NCBI RefSeq assembly: GCF_053078305.1
Contig: NZ_CP166879.1
Strand: one strand, 5' to 3'
Length of the DNA: 64,000 nt
Of the stretch, positions 2,615 to 47,770 are shown in pieces. The translations under genes were made by a program, and so were the position numbers. Numbering within the stretch: position 1 is the first letter of the stretch; every line of letters begins with the position of its first letter. The notes under the pieces were generated by a model that saw nothing but the letters and a program-made list of their open reading frames with translations, did not search any database and had not been told where the DNA came from.

Positions 2615-3883
2615 TTATCTGTCCTTCTGCCCTGTTACTTTTTCTTCTGCACCAGAAAGATTCACTCCGCTCCATTTCAGGAGCATTCCCTGGGAATACA
2701 GATAATCCAGCATTCCGTGGAGCATCTGATCCTCTGTCTGAACCCGGGAAAGCCCGACGCTGTACAGTTCGTTTTCTGCATTCAGTAATTCAATCAGTGT
2801 TTTTCTTGCCACCCGGAACTGAAGACGATAAAAGTCCACAACTCTGGCAGAGGCCTGCTCCTGACGTCTGAGCGTTTCCATTTCCATCCGACTTTGTCTG
2901 ACCGTTATCAGCGATAATCGTCCGGTTTCATCAATCATTCGGGCAACAGAGTCCAGTCGTCCGGTAGCTGCAGCTATCTGCGCGGCCTTTTCACTGACAC
3001 CATAACTGGCATTACGGTTGAACAGGTCCCAGGACAGACTGACACCTATCTGCCTGTCATCCCGGGTCACTGATCCCGTTAAATCCACCCGGGGATACCG
3101 GGCAAGCTCCTGCGCTTTCAGCGCCGCTTTTTTACTCTCTACATCAGCCTGACTGGCAAGCCACGACGGATTCCCTTTCTGAGGCGTCTGCGTAAAATCA
3201 GTTAACAATCTGGACTCTGTCATCCGGGAAAAAGGATTTTCAAGATCGGCTTCGGTTACCGGATTTGTGGTCCAGGTCGAAAGTTTTCCCAGCGTGGTTT
3301 TGAGCACTCGGGTGCGGGTATTTATCTGCTGCCGGACCATCAGCCTGCGGGCTTCGGCCTGAACAAATTCAGATTCCCGCCCGGTATCGTGAATACTGAT
3401 GGTGTTAAGATCATTAAGAATTGCGTTATGCCGGGAGAGACTCTGTTCAAGTACCGCAATGGATTGCTTTTCCCTTAGCGCATCAAGATATAATGAAACA
3501 AAGGAGCGAATTGTTTCCTCGCCAGCCTCATCAACTTTATAACGGTAATACTCGGCTTCCGACTCACTCCGGCTGACATCCGCCTCAATAGCTCCCGAAG
3601 CGAATATATTCATTTCACCGCGGATACCGGGCAAAATATCTTCAGAGTCGTAGTCATAGTCGTAGCGGTGACTCTGGGAAAGGAGTTTACTGCCTGTTGC
3701 TGTGACGACCGGCCAGTGTGCTGAACGAGCCTGCTCCACACGGGAACGGGCAGAGGTGGCTTCTGCCCTTGCCTCCATCACTGATGGATCATGAATGAGA
3801 GCATCCCTCAGGAGGGCCGGCAGTGGAGAAGCGAACACGTTGTGGACAGAGAAAAGAAAACAGAAAGATAATATTCTCTTCAC
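2615..3883 (-). CDS. TolC-family outer membrane factor of the type I secretion system
   Basis: 422 aa with N-terminal signal peptide; encoded immediately upstream of, and tightly coupled to, the ABC transporter gene; GTG start preceded by GGAGG. Confidence 0.75.
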   Translation of the reverse strand: MKRILSFCFLFSVHNVFASPLPALLRDALIHDPSVMEARAEATSARSRVEQARSAHWPVVTATGSKLLSQSHRYDYDYDSEDILPGIRGEMNIFASGAIEADVSRSESEAEYYRYKVDEAGEETIRSFVSLYLDALREKQSIAVLEQSLSRHNAILNDLNTISIHDTGRESEFVQAEARRLMVRQQINTRTRVLKTTLGKLSTWTTNPVTEADLENPFSRMTESRLLTDFTQTPQKGNPSWLASQADVESKKAALKAQELARYPRVDLTGSVTRDDRQIGVSLSWDLFNRNASYGVSEKAAQIAAATGRLDSVARMIDETGRLSLITVRQSRMEMETLRRQEQASARVVDFYRLQFRVARKTLIELLNAENELYSVGLSRVQTEDQMLHGMLDYLYSQGMLLKWSGVNLSGAEEKVTGQKDR

Positions 3884-4564
3884 CCGAACCTCCGGGACAC
3901 GCGGGAAATATAATCAGGCATCATGATGCAACCGGGTAAAATATTGAGTAAAATTGAAATGCAGAGACACCGGAATTGATCCAAGCTACCGCCATTATCT
4001 TCCGCGCTGACAGAAGATAATAAAAATGTGAGATACTTCAATTTTATTGAAAACCTGAAAAACCCTTACAATCCTTGCAGTTTATGAAGAAAATTTTCAC
4101 AAAGTAAATTTAAAAATAAACAAATTAAATGTAATATAATCGGGGGAGGATTAACCATCGATGATTGCCGGAACAAAAAACAATATAAACCAACAAGATA
4201 GAAAATCATCACAACAAAGGGAAAGGTCTGTAGATAAAGAGTGGGATGGACTTCTTACTTCATATCACATAATTGATATTTTTTATCCTGCAAACTCCAA
4301 CGGCATTATGTATGACTTAGCCTCAGGCAATTATCACAGGCAAAAAAACAATATATTGTAAGCTTCATAGAATTTGGAACTTTATATAATAAATAATTCT
4401 GAGTTTTTTATCACCATTATATTAACAAAATTAATGTATTCCAGAGATTTCACATTAGTCTCCAATTTTTCAGAAGAATCTATTTACCTGGCAGGAAAAG
4501 TCATCTGGTGTTTCGCCGGAGTGAGGGGTACAGGCAATAGCGGACATAACCATTTGTTCTTTTT

Positions 4565-5540: not shown

Positions 5541-6314
5541 TTAACGAACGCTCTGTCCGGTTATTTCAACCCTGCGGTTGGGGCGCAGACATTCCTTCAG
5601 TGCTTCGCCCTCCACATCCGGGCAGAACACCACTGGTGCATCATATCCACGGCCCGTTGCATGTATCCTTTCAGCCCTGAATCCCCGGGCAATAAACCAC
5701 CCCCTGACTGATTCCGCCCGTTTCTCTGACAGGAGCCGGTTATACGCCTGCCCGCCAAGATGGTCCGTAAATCCTTCTATCTTCACCCCGACAACATGAC
5801 CCGCCTGAAACTTCTCTGCCACACGGGAAAGTGCATCACGCCCCCTCTCTGTCAGAGTCCATGAATCAAAATCAAATAATATATCACCGGGGACTGACTC
5901 CCTGTATTCTGCTGTCTCTGCCTCCGGCAGACAGTTTTCCGGCTTCCAGTAGAAAGAGCGGGCATCCATGTTCCGGTCAAACAGTATCTTGTACTGGCAG
6001 GTATAATCCCCCTCCGGTCCGGTAAAGTTGAACAGGTAATCCCATTCCCTTACACCAGACATCCCTTCAGCAAAGTGTGGTCTCCCCGCCAGCTGATAAA
6101 TCTGGTCCTTATTCATACCCGCCTTTATCTGACGTAACTTTTCTGGCAGTGGCCACGAACCTTTCTGTGTTCCGTCATGATTAAACTTCACCTTCTCCGG
6201 AGAAGGCCATACCACTTCTTCCGTCGTTCCTTCATCCGTGACATGACTCAGATTTCCACATCCTGCAAGCATCAGGGACAGCACACCCGTCATCATCATT
6301 CGACTAAATAACAT
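5541..6314 (-). CDS. Outer membrane lipoprotein with BamE/SmpA-like N-terminal domain and OmpA-type peptidoglycan-binding C-terminal domain
   Basis: Lipobox LMLAGC; OmpA-like motifs (GFTDHLGGQAYNRLLSEKRAESV, NRRVEI); AAGGAG RBS; sits 25 bp downstream of the adhesin gene on the same strand. Confidence 0.8.
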   Translation of the reverse strand: MLFSRMMMTGVLSLMLAGCGNLSHVTDEGTTEEVVWPSPEKVKFNHDGTQKGSWPLPEKLRQIKAGMNKDQIYQLAGRPHFAEGMSGVREWDYLFNFTGPEGDYTCQYKILFDRNMDARSFYWKPENCLPEAETAEYRESVPGDILFDFDSWTLTERGRDALSRVAEKFQAGHVVGVKIEGFTDHLGGQAYNRLLSEKRAESVRGWFIARGFRAERIHATGRGYDAPVVFCPDVEGEALKECLRPNRRVEITGQSVR

Positions 6315-6338
6315 TACATTTCTCCTTGCTTTTCCCTG

Positions 6339-9300
6339 TTACCACTGCCAGCCCACACCGGCACCGACGGAGAAATTACCCCGGGTGTTCTGACCTGCAT
6401 TCAGTTTCATTATCATCTTACCGTTATCGGAGATTCGGGACACACCTATTGCAATGGCGCTTTCACCACCATATCCACCGACACCCAGCCCCATCAGACT
6501 TTTACCCGGCAGATAGGCCTGAGGTATCCCGCTCATGGCCGCAGCCGATGCGCCAACACCACGGATATCCCGGTTAAGCTCTTCCACCCGGTAGCTCAGC
6601 TGACTGAATTTATTCCCGAGAGTGTTTATCGCCTGTGTATTTCCGGCAACCTGACGGTTAGTTGCATGCAACTGACTGCCATTGACGGCATCCGTTGAAT
6701 TCGCAGACAACACACCCGGTGCCACTGACTGCAGCTGACGCTCCTGTCCCGGCTGACCAAAAGAAACCACCGCAGTATCACTTCCGGTACGTCCCGCAAC
6801 AGCCTGACCGTTCAGGGCATAAGTCCCGGTATTCGCGCGGCCAGCACGGGCATGGCTGCCAACTGCAACAGAGCCGGCAGCAGCCTGACGCGTGACTTCA
6901 GCACCATTACCCATGGCAATGCTGTTTTGTCCCCGGGAAACGGCTCCCTGTCCGACAGCAATGCTGTCACGTCCTTCCGCTTTTGCTGCCTGACCGGAAG
7001 AGGCTGCTTTAAAATACTTCGTGCCTTCACGGTTCAGCATATTCACTGCATCAGCCACATTATCCGGTGTTTTATGTACACCACCATTCACCGTTGTCTT
7101 ACCGCCACCTGCAGTTGTCAGCTCACTGAAGGTGTCAGGAGCCAGCGCTGCTTTTCCGTCTTTCCAGACAACATTATCACCGCCAGCAATTCTGGCTGCA
7201 GATGCCAGCTGGCTCCCGTTAACCGCATCCGTGGATACCGGTGACACATTTCCGGCCGCCACATTTGTCAGAACAAGAGGCTGCTCACTGCTTATTCTGA
7301 CACGGGCCGGCTCAGCCGGCGTCATTGTCAGTTTCCCGGTCGCAGCATCTTCGGTCTGTGTGTAAAAACGACCTCCAATATTGACAAGCGGGTTCCCCTG
7401 GCTGTCGGTGTACTCCACCGGAATCCCCGTCACATCAATCTCATAGCTGTAATTTCCCTTGTCATCCTTACTGATGGCTGAAACCCGGGTATTCTGTCCG
7501 TGGCGGACTTCAACTGTCTGGGAAGAAACAGCAACAGCCTCATCACCGGATTCAGTCTTCAGTGCCCAGGTCGTTGCTGCCGTTGCCTGACTGATTTCAC
7601 GGTTCAGTTGTGAAACGTTAACGGCGTCCTGGTCATTCACCCCGTCTTTCACGCCGGAAATAACCCGGCCAGCCGCATCAATACCGTTCACAGTCACTGA
7701 CGGGCCATCCTTGATGGTCAGCCCGTTTTTATCCATCCGGGTTCCGCCGACAGAAACGCTGCCGTCATCTCCCAGGCGAATGTTATCAGCGAGTCTGACC
7801 GTCAGGCTCCCGTTCTGAACAGTCGTGCTGATATTCTGCCCGTCACCACCAACCGTGATATGCTTCCCGAGAGACGTGTTCACCTTGCTTCCGTCATCCG
7901 CCTGCAGACCAAAGCCGGTATTCACCAGTGCCGCACTGCTGTCACGGAGAGCATTTTTCAGGTCACCGATATTGGCCGCATTATTCAGAACATCTCCACC
8001 GGCGTCAGCAAGCGCAGTGCCGTTCAGACCACTGGCCACACTGGTTATCTGATTTCCACCGTTATTCAGGCCGGAGCCGGTAAGGGAAACCGTATTCCCC
8101 TGACCACCGCCCGCAGCAGGTGTTGTGATTGTGATGCCTTTATCATTAACTGTTGTTATCTGCCCACCTGTACCAAAAACCGCGCTGGCCAAATCACGGA
8201 GGTTTCTGGTCATCCTCACCAGAAGCCCGCCATTATCATTATCAACCCGGATATTGCCGTCAGTCACTTCAGCATTCTTCTCTGCACCACCTTTGATGGT
8301 CAGTTTTTCATTCAGTTTTTTATGAATAACCTTTCCGTCATCACCCTCAAAAGAAAGACCGTCATTCATGGTCGCCAGCTCTTCTGCCGGTGATTTTCCA
8401 TCCGGGGTATAAGTCAGACGTGTCTTCGTGGTACCGGCAGCATCTGTTAATCCACCTTTGCCTGCATTAACAGCAATGGTTGCTGACGCAGACTTTCCAC
8501 CCGCAGCAGGCGAGGATGTCAGTTTAATCGTGCCATCCTGACCATTCAGACTCACAGCCTCCTTACCATCAGCCCCGTTAACTTTGATGCTGCCGGGAGT
8601 ATTATTGCTCCCAACGCTCAGGTCATTATTCAGGGATATTTTTAACCCCTTATCCCCATTGGTGATGGCTGTGGTGGTGATATTGCTGTCCCCGGATACT
8701 TTAATCGCCTGCCCAAGAGACTGTTTCACTTCCTTATCATCAGAGTCTTTCAGTGCGAAACCTGCACCCTGCATACTGGAGGACACACCATCAATTGCCG
8801 TTTTCAGGTCTGCAACACTGGCGGCATTTTTCATCTCTTTATCAGTATTCGTTAACGTCGAAAGTTCCTTACCTTCCAGTCCACTTGCCACACCACTGAT
8901 AACAACACCATTTTGTCCGGCACCATTACCGCCTGACAATGTCAGCTTATTACCTTCGGATGAGAGCGTTACACTTCCGTTATTTCCTTTTCCATTCAGC
9001 TGAACACTGCTGAATGACGGAGTATCAATAACAGAGAATGTAAAATCACCACCACTTTGTTTCACGCTGAGATTTTTACCGGCTTTCAGCGTAACCATAT
9101 CACCGGGTTTTATCAGTGTTTCTGTTCCCTGACCATTTCCCTCGATAACACCACCGGTATCTTTATCCGCTTTAATTTTCCAGCCAGACTGGTTTATGGC
9201 ATCAGCAATGTTTTTCGCAGTAACAAGTTTATCGCCATCACCATTGTTTACTGTAATCTTCCCGTTACCACCATTTACAGGCAACGAAGCTGTCTCTGCT

Positions 9301-10670
9301 GAAATCTCCAGTTTATCTCCAGCCACCTGGGTTTTTATTGGGCCTTTGCCAGTGATTTCGACATTGTCACCAAGACTCTTCGTCAGCGTCTTACCATCTC
9401 CACCTTTAATTTTGATGGCATCATTTTTTATTTCATTTTTCAGCGTTGTTCCGTCAATCGTCATTCCTTTATCATTAACAGTAACTGCAATATCTCCATC
9501 ACCTTTAACAGTTAAAGTGTTACCATTCTTATTATCCTTCCCACCATTAATAGTCGCAGAACCTCCCTTATCATCCTTTAGCGTCCACGTCGGATTAATG
9601 GCATCAAGGTCATCTTTCAGTGTCTTCGCTATCGCATATAACTGACTACCGTTAATGGCATCTGTACTTGTGTCAGAAATCGCACCCGCCCCCACGTTAA
9701 CAATCTGACGCTCTTTACCCGCATCACCAACAGATACTACTGATGCTGCGTTATTTCCGGCAAAGCCACTATATGTGACTTCCGCGCCTCTTTTAGTTCT
9801 GACCTTAGCCTCTGTTACTTTTTGTGCCTGCTTATCCCTGGAGTCAGCGCCGATGGACACGTTCCCCTTTGCGACAGTAACGGTTGCTCCATGCCCCAGG
9901 GCAACCGTTTCATTCTGAGCGGCATTTGCCTCTGAACCAACAGCAAGAGCATCGTTTTTATTTGCAGAGGACTGACTACCAACGGCCAGAGCATTACCGG
10001 CATTAGCCAGCGCATTAAAACCAACCGCAGTCGCCATATCCCCTTTAGCTTCCGCCGTGGCTCCAATTGCATTCGAGGCCATCCCCTCAGCAGAACTCAC
10101 CGAACCAAGCGATACTGACAATTCGCCTTTAGCAAAAGTTCTGCTGCCCAGCGCAATACTGCCATCCCCCTGCGCTTCCGATGCAAGATAGCCATTCTCT
10201 ATTTTTTCCCGACCATAAGTCTTACCATGCAAAGGAGTTAAATCATCCCCACCAATAACAATAGCCCCCCATCCGGTAGCTTTGGTATCGCCACCTATTG
10301 CAATTGACTGTTCTTTAGTTGCTTTCGTTTTCGCTCCTATCGCAATAGACTCGCCTGTGTACAAACCTTCCTTCGTGCTAATGTCACCTCCAGCCTCTGC
10401 ACTGGTACCAATCGCGATAGAGTTACGTCCTTCAGCCACCGGTGATTTATGGTCGAAATTAATTCCCTTTGATTCATCTTTTGCTGTAAATTTCGTTGTA
10501 CCTATTTCAATGCTCTTCCAGTCATCGCCATAGACATCATGGCCAAGGCTGGTTTCATCAACTTCAACAGTTAACTTATTTGTATCTGCCTGAGCACTGA
10601 CCTGTGATATGGATGCCGGATTAAGAACAAGTGATATGGCTATACAGATATGTTTTTTTCTGAGGTTCAT
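6339..10670 (-). CDS. Trimeric autotransporter adhesin (type Vc, YadA-like anchor)
   Basis: 1443 aa from ATG at 10670 (AAGGAG RBS); repeated neck/head motifs (DAINGSQL, DAVNGSQL, NVSQLN); C-terminal anchor ending GNFSVGAGVGWQW. Confidence 0.9.
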   Translation of the reverse strand: MNLRKKHICIAISLVLNPASISQVSAQADTNKLTVEVDETSLGHDVYGDDWKSIEIGTTKFTAKDESKGINFDHKSPVAEGRNSIAIGTSAEAGGDISTKEGLYTGESIAIGAKTKATKEQSIAIGGDTKATGWGAIVIGGDDLTPLHGKTYGREKIENGYLASEAQGDGSIALGSRTFAKGELSVSLGSVSSAEGMASNAIGATAEAKGDMATAVGFNALANAGNALAVGSQSSANKNDALAVGSEANAAQNETVALGHGATVTVAKGNVSIGADSRDKQAQKVTEAKVRTKRGAEVTYSGFAGNNAASVVSVGDAGKERQIVNVGAGAISDTSTDAINGSQLYAIAKTLKDDLDAINPTWTLKDDKGGSATINGGKDNKNGNTLTVKGDGDIAVTVNDKGMTIDGTTLKNEIKNDAIKIKGGDGKTLTKSLGDNVEITGKGPIKTQVAGDKLEISAETASLPVNGGNGKITVNNGDGDKLVTAKNIADAINQSGWKIKADKDTGGVIEGNGQGTETLIKPGDMVTLKAGKNLSVKQSGGDFTFSVIDTPSFSSVQLNGKGNNGSVTLSSEGNKLTLSGGNGAGQNGVVISGVASGLEGKELSTLTNTDKEMKNAASVADLKTAIDGVSSSMQGAGFALKDSDDKEVKQSLGQAIKVSGDSNITTTAITNGDKGLKISLNNDLSVGSNNTPGSIKVNGADGKEAVSLNGQDGTIKLTSSPAAGGKSASATIAVNAGKGGLTDAAGTTKTRLTYTPDGKSPAEELATMNDGLSFEGDDGKVIHKKLNEKLTIKGGAEKNAEVTDGNIRVDNDNGGLLVRMTRNLRDLASAVFGTGGQITTVNDKGITITTPAAGGGQGNTVSLTGSGLNNGGNQITSVASGLNGTALADAGGDVLNNAANIGDLKNALRDSSAALVNTGFGLQADDGSKVNTSLGKHITVGGDGQNISTTVQNGSLTVRLADNIRLGDDGSVSVGGTRMDKNGLTIKDGPSVTVNGIDAAGRVISGVKDGVNDQDAVNVSQLNREISQATAATTWALKTESGDEAVAVSSQTVEVRHGQNTRVSAISKDDKGNYSYEIDVTGIPVEYTDSQGNPLVNIGGRFYTQTEDAATGKLTMTPAEPARVRISSEQPLVLTNVAAGNVSPVSTDAVNGSQLASAARIAGGDNVVWKDGKAALAPDTFSELTTAGGGKTTVNGGVHKTPDNVADAVNMLNREGTKYFKAASSGQAAKAEGRDSIAVGQGAVSRGQNSIAMGNGAEVTRQAAAGSVAVGSHARAGRANTGTYALNGQAVAGRTGSDTAVVSFGQPGQERQLQSVAPGVLSANSTDAVNGSQLHATNRQVAGNTQAINTLGNKFSQLSYRVEELNRDIRGVGASAAAMSGIPQAYLPGKSLMGLGVGGYGGESAIAIGVSRISDNGKMIMKLNAGQNTRGNFSVGAGVGWQW

Positions 10671-11307
10671 ATATACCCTCTTTTCTCCTTTATTTTCTTC
10701 CACTCAGTCGGAATAGCATAAAAATCATGCATGAATATTATGTAAGGTGGACTACCTTCATTTCTTCAGCATCCATTTTTTATAAAGCCAGAAGTGAACA
10801 AAACGGGAACCATTAAAAAGCAGACAAAAGGCAATAAAGTGATTTATAATAATGCAAACATAAAACATATTAAGTTTAAGTAAACTACCCGACATTACGC
10901 GTTACAGCAGAATGCAGGTACACTACCTGCCATTGCCTGACGCACTGGCGAAGGCAGTAAAAATGAGATACATTTCACTTCGCAGCAAAAAAAACGAAAT
11001 CCTGCAATTTTTCTGATTTTACTGACAGAAAAGCCCGAGAGTTAAATTTAAATAACTTAAAAGATTCTGTGGTATAATCAGGTTCATACAGGCCTGATTG
11101 TTTCACAGGAAATTAAATCTTTTAAATCAACAGGCTATGGAGGTGTAATGGTGATGAATTGTGTAAAGATAGAGTGTGAGTATAACTGGAGTAATAAAAC
11201 CAAATTAAAATTATCAATATTTAACAAATGTAATTTATTAAGTTTATTTTTATCAAAATTAAAAGCATTACAACCTGGAAGCTGACGTTACTGATTACTA
11301 TACTGGT

Positions 11308-20260: not shown

Positions 20261-21853
20261 TTATTTATTGGTGAGTACTACGTTCCATGGCAAGAGTTCA
20301 TCAACTCGGTTGGAAGGCCATTCCGGCAGTACGCTCAGGATATGGCGCAGATACGCTTCCGGATCGATACCGTTCAGACGGCAGGTGCCGATCAGCCCGT
20401 ACAACAGTGCTCCACGCTCGCCGCCGTGATCGCTGCCAAAGAACATAAAGTTTTTCTTTCCGAGACAGACTGCACGAAGCGCTCTTTCCGCAGCATTATT
20501 ATCCGCCTCCGCCAGACCGTCATCACTGTAATAACAGAGGGCATCCCACTGATTCAGTACATAGCTGAACGCTTCGCCCAGTCTGGATTTTTTCGACAGC
20601 GTACCATTCTTCTCCACCATCCATTCATGCAGCGACGTCAGTAACACTTTGCTTCGCTGCTGCCTGACGGAAAGACGCTCTGACTCCGGTAATCCCCGTA
20701 TTTCATCCTCGATGGCGTACAGTTCACTGATTCGCTTCAGGGCTTCTTCTGCCTTCGCACTTTTGCTGCTGATGTATACATCGTGGATTTTTCGCCGGGC
20801 ATGGGCCCAGCACGCAACTTCTGTCAGTGCACCACCTTCACGTTCTGCACTGAACAACCTGTCGTAACCTGTGAACGCATCCGCCTGCAGGATACCCCGG
20901 AAGGGGCGGAGGTGTTGCTCCGGGTGTTTCCCCTGCCGGTTCGGCGAGTACGCGAACCAGACCGCTGGAGGAGATGACGAACCCACATTGCGATCATCCC
21001 GGACATACGTCCAGATACGCCCTGTTTTCGCCTTTTTCTGACCCGGTGCCAGTACCTTTACCGGTGTGTCATCAGTGTGAACCTTGCGGGTGTTCATTAC
21101 ATAACGGTACAGGGCATCATTCACCGGTGTCATTAACTGGCAGCACGCGTCAACCCAGTTGGAGAGTAAGGCCCGGCTCAGTTCGACACCCTTGCGGGCA
21201 AAGATTTCACTCTGACGATACAGTGGCAGATGTTCGCAGTATTTTCCCGTTAACACGCGGGCAAGTAATCCGGGGCCCGCGATACCACGCTCTATCGGGC
21301 GGGACGGCGCCGGTGCTTCAACGATGCAGTCACATTTTGTACAGGCTTTTTTTACCCGTTCTGTGCGGATCACTTTCAGGGCGCTGCTCACCAGTTCCAG
21401 TTGTTCTGCACTGACTTCCCCCAGATAATCCAGCTCACCGCCACACTCCGGGCAACAGCTTTCTTCAGACTCCAGACGGTGTATTTCACGGGGAAGGTGT
21501 GCCGGTAACGGACGACGATGGCGCGACTGTCGCAACTGGCGGGGAACCTGTGGATCGTCTTCCCGCCCACTGTAACGATCGCTGTCCTGTTCGCGTTGTT
21601 TCAGCAGGGCCTCAGCCTGTTCAACTTCACGACGCAGTTTTTCAGAACGGGTACCGAACAGCATCCGGCGCAGTTTTTCTATCTGAGCCCGCAGATGTTC
21701 TATTTCCCGTTCATCTTCTTCGATCTTTTCTTCGGCACGTGCCAGTGCAGAGCGCAGGAAGGCCTCCGTCTCTTCAACCAGACTCAGTTGCTGGTCTTTC
21801 TGACGGAGCTGGCTTTCCAGTTCTGCAATGCGAATGAGGTATTTCTGACTCAT
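20261..21853 (-). CDS. IS66-family transposase (TnpC / Orf3)
   Basis: 530 aa; N-terminal coiled-coil/leucine zipper and zinc-finger-like CxxC pairs (CPECG, CTKCDC) typical of IS66 transposases. Confidence 0.9.
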   Translation of the reverse strand: MSQKYLIRIAELESQLRQKDQQLSLVEETEAFLRSALARAEEKIEEDEREIEHLRAQIEKLRRMLFGTRSEKLRREVEQAEALLKQREQDSDRYSGREDDPQVPRQLRQSRHRRPLPAHLPREIHRLESEESCCPECGGELDYLGEVSAEQLELVSSALKVIRTERVKKACTKCDCIVEAPAPSRPIERGIAGPGLLARVLTGKYCEHLPLYRQSEIFARKGVELSRALLSNWVDACCQLMTPVNDALYRYVMNTRKVHTDDTPVKVLAPGQKKAKTGRIWTYVRDDRNVGSSSPPAVWFAYSPNRQGKHPEQHLRPFRGILQADAFTGYDRLFSAEREGGALTEVACWAHARRKIHDVYISSKSAKAEEALKRISELYAIEDEIRGLPESERLSVRQQRSKVLLTSLHEWMVEKNGTLSKKSRLGEAFSYVLNQWDALCYYSDDGLAEADNNAAERALRAVCLGKKNFMFFGSDHGGERGALLYGLIGTCRLNGIDPEAYLRHILSVLPEWPSNRVDELLPWNVVLTNK

Positions 21854-21883
21854 GACCGTTTTTATAATGCGGTCAGGATTTTT

Positions 21884-22234
21884 TTACAACATTGTCAGTG
21901 AGTTACGGCGGGATGTTTTTGGCTGACGCCAGTCCAGCTTATCGAGGAGCATTGCCAGTTGCGAGCGGGTAATGGATACCTTGCCGTCACGTACCGCAGG
22001 CCAGATAAACTGGCCTTCCTCCAGGCGTTTAGTGAACAGGCACAGACCATCAGCATCAGCCCAAAGAATTTTAACGGTGTCACCCCGTCGGCCACGGAAG
22101 ATAAACAGGTGACCGGAGAAGGGATTATCATTCAGCACATGTTGTACCTGTTCTCCCAGTCCGTTGAAGGATTTACGCATATCGGTAACGCCGGCAACGA
22201 GCCAGATACGGGTACCTGATGGGAGTGAGATCAT
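21884..22234 (-). CDS. IS66-family Orf2 (TnpB) accessory protein
   Basis: 116 aa, MISLPSGTRIWLVAGVTDMRKSFNGL...; overlaps orf1 by 4 nt. Confidence 0.9.
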   Translation of the reverse strand: MISLPSGTRIWLVAGVTDMRKSFNGLGEQVQHVLNDNPFSGHLFIFRGRRGDTVKILWADADGLCLFTKRLEEGQFIWPAVRDGKVSITRSQLAMLLDKLDWRQPKTSRRNSLTML

Positions 22235-22656
22235 CTTCCCCTCCCGGTCAGTTCACGGATCAACACCGTGAGCAGCTCTGGCGATGGATTTTCCAGCGTC
22301 ATGTTACCGTGACGGAATTCCACCTTGCAGGAGCTGGCACTGACTCTGGTCTGAGAGGTAGTGGATAAAGATGGCGCAATGGCCACCACAGGTTCTTTCT
22401 GCTCATCCGGCGTTATTTCTACAGGTAATAATTCAACGCCAGTGTCAGAAGAGGTCGTTACCGGAAGACGCCGCGAAACACGCCCTTCGTTCTGCCAGAG
22501 CCTGAGCCATTTGAACAGGAGGTTATCATTGATATCGTGTTCCCGGGCGATACGGGCAACAGAGGCTCCTGGTTGCAAAGCCAGTTTAACCATTTGAAGT
22601 TTAAAATTATTTGAAAATGATCTGCGGGGTTCTGCGGATAATGTTTTTTGCTCCAT
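22231..22656 (-). CDS. IS66-family Orf1 (TnpA) accessory protein
   Basis: 141 aa, MEQKTLSAEPRRSFSNNFKLQMVKLALQPGASVARIAREHDINDNLLFKW... Confidence 0.85.
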   Translation of the reverse strand: MEQKTLSAEPRRSFSNNFKLQMVKLALQPGASVARIAREHDINDNLLFKWLRLWQNEGRVSRRLPVTTSSDTGVELLPVEITPDEQKEPVVAIAPSLSTTSQTRVSASSCKVEFRHGNMTLENPSPELLTVLIRELTGRGR

Positions 22657-22708
22657 AACAGGCGTCCACTAGTTTGAAAAGGTGGGCACCTACGTTACCA
22701 ATACTGGC

Positions 22709-23003
22709 TTAATGGCTACATACGGCAGTCGGTTTACGCTTACCTTTGATCAGCCAGAGCCTGAGCCATTTGAACAGAAGATTATCATTGATATCATGCT
22801 CCCGGGCAATACGGGCAACAAAAACCCTTGGTTGTAAAGCCAGTTTAACCATTTGAAGTTTAAACTCATTTGAAAATGACCTGCGGGGTTCTGCGGATAA
22901 TGTTTTTTGTTCCATAACAGGCATCCACTAGTTTGAAAAGGTGGGCACCTACGTTACCAATACTGGCTTAATGGCTACATACGACGGTCGGTTTACGCTT
23001 ACC
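22709..23003 (-). mobile_element. Partial tandem duplicate of the IS66 end (5' part of orf1 plus terminal repeat)
   Basis: Sequence 22925-23003 nearly repeats 22657-22745; ORF 22709..22924 encodes a truncated Orf1 copy (MPVMEQKTLSAEPRRSFSNEFKLQMVKLALQP...). Confidence 0.7.
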
Positions 23004-23045
23004 AGAAAACTAATAGTGCTATATGCAATTTTTAATATTCAGACT

Positions 23046-25727
23046 TTAGCCTGACAGGCCTGACAAAAACGCGCCCAACTTCCCTTCTATATCACTGTCT
23101 ATAGTACGTAATCTTAGCAATGGCAGACCACATTTCTTCAGTATACTGTTTTTAAGTTCATCACGTTCAGCCTGGACACTGGTCAGATGATAGCCTCCAT
23201 CCACTTCAATAACCCCTAATGGAGTCTTCCCGACCTTATAGTAAACAACAAAGTCACAACTGGCCCGATTACGCATGAATAACAGTTCACGGTGAGTAAA
23301 ATCTCCCCGCTCCAGCAACACCAACTGATTCAGCGCTATTTGTGAATGAAACATCATGCTCCGATAACTATCCTGCGACAGGATATCCCGCAACAGGCAG
23401 GCCACAATCTGTTCTGACTTAAAGCGTGAATCATCTGAATTCAATCTACTATTCAGTCGTTCCAGTGATTTGTCATACTCACTGTACAGCAAATCAAATG
23501 CTGATATCACCGGGCTCTCGAAAATCTCTCCGTCATCAGCGTAGTATCTGATGTAACGAATCAGTGCCGCAATATGTCCAGCGTGGCGTTCAAATACATC
23601 ATTACCAGTCACCAACGTAAATTTGTTTCGGGCCCTTGAAACAGCGACATTCACCAGTTCAGGATTATCAACAAACGCGATATTCCGACTTTGCTGGCTG
23701 CTGCGTTTCTTATCCAGCACAGTGGAAAACACAATTTCATCGCACTCCCGTCCCTGAAATTTATGCACCGTCGATTTCACAAAATCAGCGGGCAGCACTG
23801 TTTCAGCCAGATTAACCTGTGCATTATATGGGGCGATATATCCCCTGCTACTTTCCTCATCCCAGTAATGTCCTTCCAGAGATTCAAGCTCCCTGAGATT
23901 TGAAAAATTACGGGTATGGTTTCCTTTTGCCGTGATGATCAGAGATAATGAGGCTTCACCTGAATCAAGCGTTAGCGGTATCAGAGCATTATCATAAAAC
24001 TGCTTATTACAAAATTGAATGATTTTAGGATGACAGCGATAATGCTCTTTAAGAAGAGTTACTGGCACCATATTCCTGAACGACATACAAACCGAATCAA
24101 GTAGACTATATTTCTCACAATTATAGTATTCTGCCGGTGGAGATGGGCTGTTCGGGAGTAATACAGGAACATGTGGAAGTTGCTTTCGATCCCCTACAAC
24201 GATTACATTACGGGCACATCCTAGTCCCAGAATGCCCGGAACAATATCCTGCTGTGAGGCTTCATCAATAATCACATAATCAAGAAGAGCCCCCTTACCG
24301 ATAGAGTTAATAATAGAATGCGTGCTGCTACCAATAACCGGAAAACGCTTTATAAAACGGTTAAATTCATCCCTGTATGTCTCTGCCGAGAATGAATTTC
24401 TTGTTGAAATATTTCTTCGCAGATGTTGTTTTAAATAAAGCACAGACCATGATGTCAGGCGCTCCAGTAAAATTTTAAAATCAGATTCCTTTAATACTTT
24501 CTCATATTCATTCAAAGAAATTTGTTTTTCCCGGATGGATTTTTCATAATAAGAAAGCTGAAGAGAAGTAAATAGTGCCAGCCTTCTCTCCGGAATCACC
24601 AATGGTTTGACTTTCAGTATCCTGAAGTTTAACAACAAATCAATTCTGTTTCTGAATCCAATCCGCCTGTCAGAAAGGTAATGAATATAAGCCATCAGGT
24701 CAGTTGTTTTTCGTGAGGAAAGTCGGTATTTGTGAGAAAAAAGCTCCTCCGGTCGAAGATTCTGACTCTGCCATTGCTGCAGGTATTTATACTCAACACT
24801 CAGTTCATTAATTTCTGCTTTTAACGAAGCAACCTGGTTGATAGCATTCAGGTGTTTTTTCACTTGTTGAAGTACATCATCAATCATATTTGCAGACGGT
24901 GAGTCAGGTAAGACTTCCTCAGAACGCGAAATCGACGTTGAAAAAAACTGTTGTCTGTTCTCCGTACTTCCCAGTCGTGCCACCACATATCCCAGTCGTT
25001 GTTTGTCCATTTTTTCATAAACATTACTGACAGCTGAGTTATTATTGGACAAAATTGCCACTGTTTTATTCTGAATTAATATATTGGCAACAATATTGAG
25101 AATAGTCTGTGTTTTACCTGTCCCAGGTGGTCCTTCAATAACTGAAATCTGTGAGGAAAATGCCCGTTCAACCGCCATTAACTGACTCTCATTCAGGCCA
25201 AACGGAAAAATCAACCCCCATGGCGAATCACGTTTTTTACTCTGTCCTGAACAGTATGCATGCAAGGCGGTATCCGGATGAGGAACTATTTTCTTTATCT
25301 GTCTGAGGATATTCTCATCGATATTTTTATTATTACCTCGAGCATAAAAAACACGTTCGTCAGCCACCCTGCACAAGTAATTAAACACGGCATGCTCTGT
25401 AAATGCTGAACACTGTTGAAAGTCAAGTCCGGTCGTTTTCATGATGTAGGGTCGTTCGCTCTCACGGTAATAAACAGCAGCATATTTATCACCATAGATA
25501 ATAACCCGTTCAGCCCGGGATGTTACAGCGTTCCCTTTCCTTTCGAGGAAAACATTTCGCAAAATTACAGTTGGCGTTATCTGACATACAGAAAGCGGAC
25601 GAGTATATTTTTTCCCGCTGCGAAAATGACAGGTCAGCATAACCTCTCCGTCATCATTTCCAGCCCACAGAGTCCAGTCGGTAATTTTATGAGTCTTATT
25701 TTCACCGTCAACACAAATCGTGACCAT
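23046..25727 (-). CDS. Superfamily-1 helicase fused to a C-terminal PD-(D/E)xK (DUF2726-like) nuclease domain; candidate defence protein
   Basis: 893 aa; Walker A GPPGTGKTQT, Walker B/motif II VIIDEASQ, further SF1 Upf1/DNA2-like motifs (VGDRKQLPHV, HYRCHPKIIQF, STVHKFQGRECD, VAVSRARNKF); C-terminal VIEVDGGYH...ERDELK...GLPLLRL; N-terminal ~180 aa unassigned. Confidence 0.75.
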   Translation of the reverse strand: MVTICVDGENKTHKITDWTLWAGNDDGEVMLTCHFRSGKKYTRPLSVCQITPTVILRNVFLERKGNAVTSRAERVIIYGDKYAAVYYRESERPYIMKTTGLDFQQCSAFTEHAVFNYLCRVADERVFYARGNNKNIDENILRQIKKIVPHPDTALHAYCSGQSKKRDSPWGLIFPFGLNESQLMAVERAFSSQISVIEGPPGTGKTQTILNIVANILIQNKTVAILSNNNSAVSNVYEKMDKQRLGYVVARLGSTENRQQFFSTSISRSEEVLPDSPSANMIDDVLQQVKKHLNAINQVASLKAEINELSVEYKYLQQWQSQNLRPEELFSHKYRLSSRKTTDLMAYIHYLSDRRIGFRNRIDLLLNFRILKVKPLVIPERRLALFTSLQLSYYEKSIREKQISLNEYEKVLKESDFKILLERLTSWSVLYLKQHLRRNISTRNSFSAETYRDEFNRFIKRFPVIGSSTHSIINSIGKGALLDYVIIDEASQQDIVPGILGLGCARNVIVVGDRKQLPHVPVLLPNSPSPPAEYYNCEKYSLLDSVCMSFRNMVPVTLLKEHYRCHPKIIQFCNKQFYDNALIPLTLDSGEASLSLIITAKGNHTRNFSNLRELESLEGHYWDEESSRGYIAPYNAQVNLAETVLPADFVKSTVHKFQGRECDEIVFSTVLDKKRSSQQSRNIAFVDNPELVNVAVSRARNKFTLVTGNDVFERHAGHIAALIRYIRYYADDGEIFESPVISAFDLLYSEYDKSLERLNSRLNSDDSRFKSEQIVACLLRDILSQDSYRSMMFHSQIALNQLVLLERGDFTHRELLFMRNRASCDFVVYYKVGKTPLGVIEVDGGYHLTSVQAERDELKNSILKKCGLPLLRLRTIDSDIEGKLGAFLSGLSG

Positions 25728-26235
25728 ATTCTCACTCAGTAATTATCATTTAACTTACGGAAAATTGTTATGAAACTCCCGATATTTACCCGGTAAAATA
25801 CTTGTCATTGTTTGAAGCCCTCCCTAAAAAATGACCAGGCATTTGATAACCCGGTGTATTTCTCCCGATATGAGCTCCGGAGGATTTTCCACAACTCCGG
25901 GTGTGTTAACATATTCCCGCCGGCCATATATACATTGAGTTCAGTCATAACAGTCAATACCAGGATTACAGGAACGCGATGCTGATACGCTGGTTATTGA
26001 ATACTGGTAGCCCCTAACTACTAATTCATCACGATACTCTGTACTTACTGTTTTTTACAACCATTCCCCCAGGTAAAAGAGTCCATTTATCATGCCCCTC
26101 TTTAACGCCTGCCAGCATAATTTAAGAATGGATACCGTGGGTGGAATTAACAATACCTGCTCAGGCCAATGCCATGTAACCGCCTCACTGAAAAAGCCAG
26201 ATCATCTAACCAGGTACAGACCAACATCGCAAAAA

Positions 26236-26385
26236 TTACCATGTAGCACGAACTGCTGTCATATTTCTGTTCAGGTATGCCGCTATTTCGCGGGTTTTCT
26301 TCACGCCATAATGCGTTTCAAGGTAGCGAACATCTTCGATTGTCCATGGTGTGCGCGCTCTTCCGGGGGTATTTTCCATTTCCAT
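26236..26385 (-). CDS. Small hypothetical protein (49 aa), possible DNA-binding protein; below the ORF-track length cutoff
   Basis: Own translation of the minus strand: MEMENTPGRARTPWTIEDVRYLETHYGVKKTREIAAYLNRNMTAVRATW; starts 15 nt downstream of the vasL-like stop; no homology support. Confidence 0.3.
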   Translation of the reverse strand: MEMENTPGRARTPWTIEDVRYLETHYGVKKTREIAAYLNRNMTAVRATW

Positions 26386-26400
26386 GTTTTATCTCAGCCA

Positions 26401-27765
26401 TTATGGCTGCCTCTCCTGATTGCCTGTGTGTTCCATCTGATAACGATTAATCAGCTGATTCAGTGCCATTTCAGCCTGTTTTTGCTGCTGTTCACTGCCA
26501 TTCTGATTACGGGCTTCATCATAGCGACGTAACTGCTCTTCTGCCGGGATATGCCGGTTAAAAGCCTGCATGATGCCAAACACCTCCGTTTTCAGTTCAC
26601 TGACCGTCATGTATTTTCCCCGCTGTTCATCCAGACGGTTCAGGCGCTCAGCCAGCTGCTGTAAGCGGGTCATGCCTTCGTTCCAGCCCGTCATCGCCTC
26701 TTCCGGAAGCGCTCGGCTCCTTACGCTCTTCTGCCAGTTATCCACCATTTCCTGAACACGGGGATTGTCGGGGAAAAGTCCCCTCAGTTGCTGCAGCAGC
26801 TGCGCACTGCGTTGCAGGTTGTATGCCGGCGGTAGTTCTGTCAGTCGCGTTATCTGCTGACCGGAAAGGGTTATCCACTCTGACGCATGATTTAACAGTG
26901 AGGGTGTTCTGCTGAGTTGCGCCATCTGGTCTGCTGAAAGCACATCCGGTAGTGGTGCCAGCAGCGCCCTGAGTTGCTGCTCCGCCGATGATGGCTGTGT
27001 CAGAAACTGCCATCCCGGAATGACCACGCTGACAGTCAGCAATGCCGCACAGACACCAGCCACAAACGGTTTCAGAAACGTGGGCGGGGATTTCTGAAGG
27101 GAGGGTGTGGGTTCTGCTTTTGTTTCAGAAACAACATACACCAGACGGGAGTACGGCAGGGGCTGATGTTCCTGTACATCCGGAGCATCAGACCGGAGTG
27201 CCTGAGCCGGAAGGGTTACCGGCGACGATACTTCACCCTGCACAGGCTGATTCTCCAGACGGGTGATATATCCCTTCACCATGGCTTCCGGTAAAGCCAC
27301 TTTACTGCTCTGTTTAAGTTCATGCCGGGCCAGTATGTCACTCAGCGTTTTCAGGCATGTTTCTGTCTGATACAGCAGGGGCAGATTGTCACGCTCATCC
27401 GGTGGCATGGCCCGGAGCGTTTTTTGCAGACGACTGAACAGACCGGTAATAATTTCCAGCCGGGCGTGGGTATTCAGCGGCCACATCACTGACCAGTGAT
27501 GCCGGGTCAGCGCCACAATCAGAGCCAGCCCTTCATTCAGACCACTTAACCCTGCTGTATGCATCCGGGCGATGGTGTACCAGGATACCGTCTGTAATTC
27601 CACGCCATTGTGTTCATACAGACGCAGGCAGAGCGTCTCCACATAACGCCAGTCCACATCCGGACGTGCCGGGTGAGTCAGCTTGCTGATTTCATCGCGC
27701 AGGGCAGCATAATCCGGTAATGACCGGGGGTCATTACCTGTTTTCAGTTTTACTTCAGAAGTCAT
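26401..27765 (-). CDS. T6SS-associated ImpA_N-domain membrane protein (VasL-like)
   Basis: 454 aa; N-terminal domain resembles the TssA N-terminus (DYAALRDEISKL...VSWYTIARMH versus TssA ...ATWYIWARL...) followed by one TM segment and a periplasmic region. Confidence 0.65.
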   Translation of the reverse strand: MTSEVKLKTGNDPRSLPDYAALRDEISKLTHPARPDVDWRYVETLCLRLYEHNGVELQTVSWYTIARMHTAGLSGLNEGLALIVALTRHHWSVMWPLNTHARLEIITGLFSRLQKTLRAMPPDERDNLPLLYQTETCLKTLSDILARHELKQSSKVALPEAMVKGYITRLENQPVQGEVSSPVTLPAQALRSDAPDVQEHQPLPYSRLVYVVSETKAEPTPSLQKSPPTFLKPFVAGVCAALLTVSVVIPGWQFLTQPSSAEQQLRALLAPLPDVLSADQMAQLSRTPSLLNHASEWITLSGQQITRLTELPPAYNLQRSAQLLQQLRGLFPDNPRVQEMVDNWQKSVRSRALPEEAMTGWNEGMTRLQQLAERLNRLDEQRGKYMTVSELKTEVFGIMQAFNRHIPAEEQLRRYDEARNQNGSEQQQKQAEMALNQLINRYQMEHTGNQERQP

Positions 27766-47610: not shown

Positions 47611-47730
47611 GTTATTCACTCACTGTCAGAAGACCTTCAGACACGCTACCGCCCTTCGCCATAACCCGGGCGCATCAGGTCTGTGTTCAGGACTGAGAAT
47701 TCTTTCTTCAGCACCCGCCAGCAGATACTG

Positions 47731-47770
47731 AAGAAAAAAGAAAAATGACGGACAGGATACCCTGCCCGTC
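47731..47770 (-). terminator. Stem-loop with U-tract between hcp and clpV (terminator or attenuator)
   Basis: Minus-strand GACGGGCAGG-GTAT-CCTGTCCGTC (one mismatch) followed by ATTTTTCTTTTTTCTT, directly after the hcp stop. Confidence 0.5.

Follow-up and report, generated by a model that had tools for sequence, protein, structure and literature searches.

A candidate leaky terminator and a second conserved RNA hairpin upstream of the RfaH-loading ops element at the hcp-clpV junction of a sci1-type T6SS cluster

The tube protein Hcp is required in large excess by the T6SS; firing of the system uses up ATPase and baseplate proteins in much smaller amounts than Hcp, and one promoter is shared by all these genes in the type of cluster considered here. 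The organization of the region that follows hcp has been studied in the T6SS4 operon of Y. pseudotuberculosis, in which the hcp mRNA is far more abundant than that of the downstream genes. In this operon, mutation of the hcp4 stem lowered the hcp4 mRNA and left the downstream genes unchanged, and the authors concluded that it is a protective loop acting after endonucleolytic cleavage (PMC12503267). A different arrangement was described in hlyCABD, where a terminator located between hlyA and hlyB is read through with RfaH (PMC9306574). Additionally, in vivo work on the terminator tR2 showed that the trailing ribosome suppresses it almost completely if the stop codon lies only a few bp upstream, and that full strength is regained once this distance exceeds ~30 bp (Li et al., 2016; PMC4824070).

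The hcp-clpV junction itself has been analyzed in the sci1 cluster of EAEC, whose ops1 element is the ops of the junction described in this work (Taillefer, Desjardins and Cascales, bioRxiv 10.1101/2025.02.08.637259). The mutation of ops1 or rfaH abolished sheath assembly and sharply reduced the expression of a reporter placed after clpV, a tssC-tssK reporter remaining unchanged, and other enterobacteria were reported to conserve ops between hcp and clpV as well (bioRxiv 10.1101/2025.02.08.637259). Moreover, an RfaH ChIP signal was obtained at tssH in UPEC CFT073 (Hustmyer et al., 2022; PMC9765446). The word "terminator" appears zero times in the texts of these two ops papers (bioRxiv 10.1101/2025.02.08.637259; PMC9765446), in which the structures named below as hairpin 2 and P3 are likewise unmentioned, and no literature on an hcp terminator in sci1-type clusters was found.

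The window (the whole stretch of DNA that was analyzed, 64 kb) carries a T6SS cluster whose gene order is of the sci1 type, as annotated in E. coli CFIAFB20190157, a genome in which hcp is annotated and the junction is 99.3% identical, so that E. coli is the most likely source of the window. The hcp gene (48270-47779, minus strand; 163 aa; Pfam T6SS_HCP, E 2e-35) ends in a TAA stop codon at 47781-47779 (minus) and is followed, after an intergenic region of 168 nt, by clpV/tssH (47610-44923, minus), encoding the sheath-recycling AAA+ ATPase (895 aa; Pfam AAA_2, AAA_lid_9 and ClpB_D2-small). The start of clpV is preceded only by a weak Shine-Dalgarno-like GAGTGA. The genes tssB, tssC, tssK, tssL (DotU) and an OmpA-domain tagL-like gene are located 5' of hcp, and vgrG, tssM, tssA, tssF, tssG, tssJ and tssE are located 3' of clpV. 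At the border of the cluster past tssE (20261-27765, minus), a VasL/ImpA_N gene (26401-27765), a gene encoding an 893-aa superfamily-1 helicase-like protein with DUF2726 (23046-25727) and an IS66 transposase gene (20261-21853) were observed. The junction variant was detected at an identity of at least 90% in about 90 of 5,426 complete E. coli genomes, all of them with a chromosomal location, and the plasmid matches to the intergenic region were restricted to one record, from Citrobacter, with 93.5% identity.

An earlier note on this DNA had placed a GC-rich hairpin and a long T-run right after hcp, at 47731-47770, and both were recovered when the region was analyzed by folding, pattern scan and covariation. 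Hairpin 1 (47770-47747, minus) is of the terminator type, with a GC-rich 10-bp stem and a GUAU loop, GACGGGCAGG-GUAU-CCUGUCCGUC, the pairs being seven G-C, two A-U and one G.U, and a spacer of 8 nt separates the stem from the hcp stop codon. On the other side, a single A separates the stem from the U-tract TTTTTCTTTTTTCTT (47745-47731, minus; UUUUUCUUUUUUCUU in its RNA-sense form), in which 13 of the 15 positions are T and whose composition after the A is U5-C-U6-C-UU. The end of this tract is 120 nt from the ATG of clpV, a distance for which the previous figure of about 110 nt was roughly right.

The stability of hairpin 1 was then compared with that of shuffled and antisense sequences. The hairpin alone (24 nt) reached -17.7 kcal/mol (z -6.2), versus -13.2 kcal/mol for the antisense fold, and -19.1 kcal/mol (z -4.5) was obtained in a 61-nt context; none of 200 shuffles matched its stability. 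A strict terminator filter (at least nine consecutive pairs, at most one G.U, at least six G-C, a loop of 3-8 nt and at least nine T in 12 nt) was applied to both strands of the window. The hairpin 1 site was the sole match, and no site at all was given by 200 dinucleotide shuffles. A loose terminator pattern was uninformative, with 18 sites against 15 expected, and the hairpin 1 site ranked top in both cluster scans. The junction presents the elements by which an intrinsic terminator is recognized: a stable GC-rich hairpin, a U-rich tract directly 3' of the stem and a selected structure on the transcribed strand. A repeat element was ruled out, since the hairpin sequence occurs only once in the window, and a bidirectional terminator was also discarded, as the plus strand lacks a T-run after either hairpin and its folds are much poorer. 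On the basis of the sequence, a probability of roughly 0.55 is assigned to the reading that the hairpin and the U-tract constitute a leaky, Rho-independent (intrinsic) terminator located within the T6SS operon, right behind hcp; we infer that termination would take place at the U-tract and that it would be partial.

Two elements that the earlier note had overlooked, a second hairpin and the ops/RfaH site, alter the picture of the junction. Hairpin 2 (47739-47700, minus) has an 18-bp stem whose 5' arm, UUUUUUCUUCAGUAUCUG, is the distal U-tract (its last nine nucleotides) and whose 3' arm is CGGGUGCUGAAGAAAGAA; a 7-nt single-stranded linker, AUUUUUC, lies between hairpins 1 and 2. The sense fold of hairpin 2 reached -22.3 kcal/mol (z -6.25), the antisense fold just -8.5 kcal/mol, and across 56 aligned loci (see below) 92% of the cells were paired and nine of the ten pairs had changes on both sides. 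This strand specificity, together with the covariation, indicates that hairpin 2 is an RNA structure. Since it includes the U-tract, hairpin 2 would form only in transcripts that have gone past the terminator. No description of it was found in the literature searched, and this second conserved hairpin is the only part of the junction with some novelty.

The conservation of these structures was analyzed by searching genomes with Hcp as the query. This yielded 80 loci whose Hcp shares at least 91% identity; they represent more than 20 genera of Enterobacterales, among them Enterobacter, Citrobacter, Klebsiella, Serratia, Erwinia, Pantoea, Rahnella, Yersinia and Edwardsiella. The region between hcp and ops contained a hairpin with a T-rich tail in 76 of the 80 loci, the stem usually starting 5-11 nt past the stop codon; two of the four missing loci have the hairpin beyond an inserted repeat. 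The non-redundant junctions, 56 in number, were used to build alignment A1, in which the stop-to-stem spacer measures 5-9 nt in 52 loci. Hairpin 1 was paired in 97% of the cells of this alignment, with six of its ten pairs changed on both sides. When hairpin 1, hairpin 2 and P3 (the short stem next to ops) were taken jointly, the observed values were reached by none of 500 column shuffles, and a control with slid partners gave a pairing of just 38-51%. One fold is maintained by three stem families, GCGGACAGG / CCTGTCCGC, CAGCAGACGG / CCGTCTGCTG and GACGGGCAGG / CCTGTCCGTC, the last one being the window's own, and the same module is present in E. coli 55989 with a fully Watson-Crick stem. Both hairpins are also inverted repeats in the DNA, and could be viewed as an operator bound by a protein at the DNA level, or as chance features. 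Such an explanation is very improbable, because the stem sequences differ among genera with the pairing kept and the fold depends on the strand owing to the G.U pairs (-22.3 versus -8.5 kcal/mol in hairpin 2); as regards chance, the shuffles never yielded such a site (0/200).

The T-rich tail was also conserved: of the 8 nt that follow the stem, at least five are T in 55 of the 56 loci and at least six in 49. The T-run is degenerate in L001 and L004 and absent in L052, and in L025, L038 and L043 it is located between the two hairpins, outside hairpin 2. The presence of the tail in 55 of the 56 loci, this last group included, suggests that the U-tract has been selected in its own right. Two points nevertheless go against the terminator reading: the T-run is degenerate or absent in some relatives, and the tract could owe part of its conservation to the arm that it contributes to hairpin 2.

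The same tail bears on the possibility that hairpin 1 is only a protector of the mRNA 3' end. According to this explanation, an endonuclease would cut the junction, for example in the AUUUUUC linker, hairpin 1 would block 3'-to-5' exonucleases and the hcp mRNA would accumulate without any termination. This is the behavior that the hcp4 stem mutation revealed in Y. pseudotuberculosis, and the position of hairpin 1, at the 3' end of the hcp cistron, fits a stabilizer of the hcp4 type. Between the two stable hairpins lies a U-rich linker of 7 nt that would suit cleavage by RNase E, an enzyme with a preference for such U-rich single-stranded linkers, and the hairpin is kept in L001 and L052 without a good T-run. 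However, a pure stabilizer needs no T-run, and one follows the stem in nearly all of the aligned loci, also where it lies outside hairpin 2; T6SS4 is, moreover, a different type of T6SS with a different junction (hcp4-tssE4). Protection as the only function of hairpin 1 is consequently considered unlikely, and the stabilizer and terminator roles, which are not mutually exclusive, can coexist.

Additionally, an Rfam scan of the whole window detected no family at its gathering score. In the junction, it gave weak chance-level matches (L20 leader, SorX and snoRNAs) and a partial match to JUMPstart (RF01707), which scored 16.6 bits, where the gathering score is 35, and covered 20 nt of the 38-nt model, and it was this partial match that led to the ops element. 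This element, GGCGGTAGCGTG, the loading and pause site of RfaH, is an exact 12-mer at 47653-47642 on the minus strand, which is the non-template strand. It is located 78 nt past the U-tract and 31 nt before the ATG of clpV, in untranslated intergenic RNA and not in coding sequence. The 12-nt consensus GGCGGTAGnnTG is present on the non-template strand of the junction, and it was found after hcp in 63 of the 80 loci, GGGCGGTAGCnT being invariant across the 56 aligned ones. No ops core was found upstream of hcp within the cluster. By analogy with the EAEC and CFT073 orthologues, RfaH occupancy and RfaH-dependent downstream expression would be expected at the ops of the window.

Directly 5' of ops, covariation supported the short stem P3 (CGCC / GGCG; 47672-47657, minus), with 96% of the cells paired and three of its four pairs changed on both sides. 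In many relatives, P3 is lengthened by an inner variable stem, giving a JUMPstart-like arrangement. Its 5' arm is the 3' end of a conserved box, GACCTGATGCGC (47681-47670, minus), which corresponds to near-invariant columns in alignments A1 and A3. In the stretch between hairpin 2 and ops (47670-47690, minus; A1 columns ~155-190), a box that reads CACAA(T/A)CTGCC in most relatives and AACACAG in the window was also observed, as well as a second, near-invariant box, GACCTnATGCGC. Two other candidate structures were rejected. A long-range pairing between the last codons of hcp and ops, obtained with RNAalifold, was dropped because its columns are all invariant, with no covariation, and because it would link the hcp coding region with ops, which is a signal in the DNA. 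The 90-nt ops-proximal leader was discarded as a single structure, since its fold was no better than that of shuffles (z -0.95), and just P3 was supported in it.

A second ops-like site, GGCGGTAGCTTG, was observed elsewhere in the window (3982-3993, minus), approximately 100 nt ahead of a TolC-like OEP gene (3883-2615) that is adjoined downstream by an ABC transporter gene (2610-463). The site is preceded by a 6-bp stem, ATCTTC...GAAGAT (3994-4020), and by an AT-rich region, and in its sequence it looks like another RfaH-controlled leader, in this case of a type I secretion operon. Just upstream of this ops-led OEP/ABC operon (5541-10703, minus), a gene encoding a 1,454-aa YadA-type trimeric autotransporter adhesin was found, and then a gene for a 257-aa BamE/OmpA-domain protein.

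The search for promoters between the hcp stop codon and ops detected no sigma-70-like site of at least 9/12 in the 56 loci, the best ones reaching 6-8/12 at non-conserved positions. The pattern scan gave one 9/12 sigma-70 site, at 47629-47602, which was ruled out as a clpV promoter because it overlaps the clpV start, and a sigma-54 consensus was absent from the junction when this was inspected by eye. These results are relevant to another explanation, in which an efficient terminator would end the tssB-hcp operon, clpV and the downstream genes would have a promoter of their own, within the junction or close to it, and ops would then lie in a true 5' leader. The ops at tssH was in fact treated as lying in the 5' leader by Hustmyer et al. 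(PMC9765446), who referred to "potential promoter regions of tssH". In the aligned loci, a weak -10-like CACAAT/AACAAT is recurrent, with up to 8/12 in a few of them, and this and the conserved CACAA box count in favor of such a promoter. By contrast, every sigma-70-like match remained below 9/12 with the best ones at differing positions, CACAAT is absent from the window itself, and P4532, the known internal sci1 promoter, is downstream of clpV and outside the junction. Moreover, hairpin 2 covaries and includes the U-tract, which argues for selection on RNAs that cross the terminator. A separate promoter for clpV thus appears quite improbable.

With no conserved sigma-70 promoter from the terminator to ops, read-through is the simplest way for the polymerase to reach ops and clpV, although a weak promoter or one of another sigma class could also operate there. 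To judge from the sequence, hairpin 1 would have to let the polymerase through, since there is no conserved sigma-70 promoter, hairpin 2 spans the U-tract and ops needs an elongating polymerase. The partial terminator with read-through that had been proposed in the earlier note is partly supported, by its anatomy, by the compensatory changes across genera and by the probable passage of the polymerase; against its termination step stands the closest analogue tested by mutation, the hcp4 hairpin, which stabilizes the mRNA with no termination.

According to the leaky terminator reading, polymerases starting upstream of tssB would transcribe tssB, tssC, tssK, tssL, tagL and hcp, and a fraction of them would stop at hairpin 1. 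The resulting transcripts, ending after hcp and carrying a stable 3' hairpin, would enrich the mRNA of the tube protein. The remainder would pass, and in this step the ribosome finishing hcp could block the folding of the 5' arm: as the stem is only 8 nt past the stop codon, the ribosome may occlude this arm and confer a built-in leakiness, which would plausibly be tied in this way to the translation of hcp. As there is no ops core upstream of hcp, the polymerases arriving at hairpin 1 would not yet be modified by RfaH; with ops located downstream, RfaH could not act on the hcp terminator, and read-through would have to be intrinsic or ribosome-assisted. In the read-through RNA, the distal U-tract would pair with the downstream A/G-rich arm to form hairpin 2. 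Hairpin 2 and P3 would leave little of the 130-nt untranslated spacer single-stranded, and this folding may limit Rho loading and the access of RNase E until RfaH is recruited at ops. The polymerase would then pause at ops, take on RfaH and continue into clpV and across the ~20 kb of T6SS genes that remain.

The variation among the relatives is informative about the module. In about a dozen loci (L006, L012, L017, L018, L020, L036, L049, L066, L070 and others; ~2993-3125), an element of ~127 nt was observed to separate the hairpin from the stop codon of hcp; judging by the ERIC primer sequences, it looks like an ERIC/IRU repeat (...CGCTCACCCCGGTCAC...TATGCTCCCGGGGA...). In these loci, the hairpin is ~130 nt from the stop codon, and hairpin 1, hairpin 2 and ops are retained downstream of the insert. 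Ribosome occlusion cannot, therefore, be essential. In L083 (E. coli A30), a gene annotated as a YoeB-family toxin lies between ops and tssH (1686-2021), with hairpins 1 and 2 and ops intact upstream. The post-hcp module with ops was also observed behind hcp genes lacking an adjacent clpV in L052 (2993-5487), L002 and L008; in L052, the next gene is vgrG (Pfam Phage_GPD and T6SS_Vgr). Its presence behind hcp genes that clpV does not follow indicates that the module travels with hcp.

A broader interpretation can be offered only tentatively. The junction may possibly be a conserved and portable cassette of three hairpins that first terminates and then anti-terminates, in which a ribosome-tunable terminator would set the Hcp:machinery ratio, hairpin 2 would mask the U-tract in the read-through RNA, and hairpin 2 and P3 would keep Rho and RNase E away from the spacer until the loading of RfaH at ops, the whole traveling with hcp across Enterobacterales, including orphan hcp-vgrG islands such as that of L052. 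If this were true, hairpin 2 would represent a kind of functional RNA element not previously described in operons controlled by RfaH.

If confirmed, a leaky terminator behind hcp would account for the setting of the stoichiometry at the level of the RNA. The published effect of RfaH would become clearer too: since ops comes after the terminator, RfaH would only secure completion by the polymerases that are already past it, so that it would not decide how many polymerases pass but ensure that those that do finish the ~20 kb. The junction is a defined control module of 170 nt with three testable RNA structures, relevant to the expression of the T6SS in E. coli, Enterobacter, Klebsiella, Serratia, Erwinia and Pantoea. 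The finding refines the existing model and overturns none.

When compared with the systems described to date, the EAEC sci1 and CFT073 loci are of the same type and contain the same site, and the module of E. coli 55989 is identical in kind, but the corresponding papers deal with ops only. As in the JUMPstart/ops leaders of polysaccharide operons, GGGCGGTAGCGTG is found here behind a short stem-loop, untranslated and on the non-template strand. Unlike those leaders, which are promoter-proximal, the ops of the junction is inside an operon and after a terminator. The junction shares with Y. pseudotuberculosis T6SS4 a GC-rich hairpin directly after hcp in a T6SS operon; however, the paper on hcp4 makes no mention of ops or RfaH, and its hairpin was shown by mutation to be a stabilizer and not a terminator (PMC12503267). 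With respect to the ribosome, the stem lies 5-9 nt past the stop codon in 52 of the 56 loci, the range in which tR2 was repressed almost completely in a synthetic reporter system (Li et al., 2016; PMC4824070). The relatives with an ERIC-like insertion, having the hairpin ~130 nt from the stop codon, differ from this stop-proximal case.

The closest functional analogue is hlyCABD, in which a stem-loop terminator is likewise located inside the operon, between an abundant cargo gene and the machinery genes, and distal expression depends on RfaH (PMC9306574). The two systems differ in their order: in hly, ops is in the leader, upstream of the terminator, and the RfaH-modified polymerase reads through it, whereas in the hcp-clpV junction ops is 78 nt downstream. 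The junction hairpin is thus an undescribed example of a well-known class, that of intra-operon intrinsic terminators or 3' stabilizers, placed ahead of an ops element that was already known.
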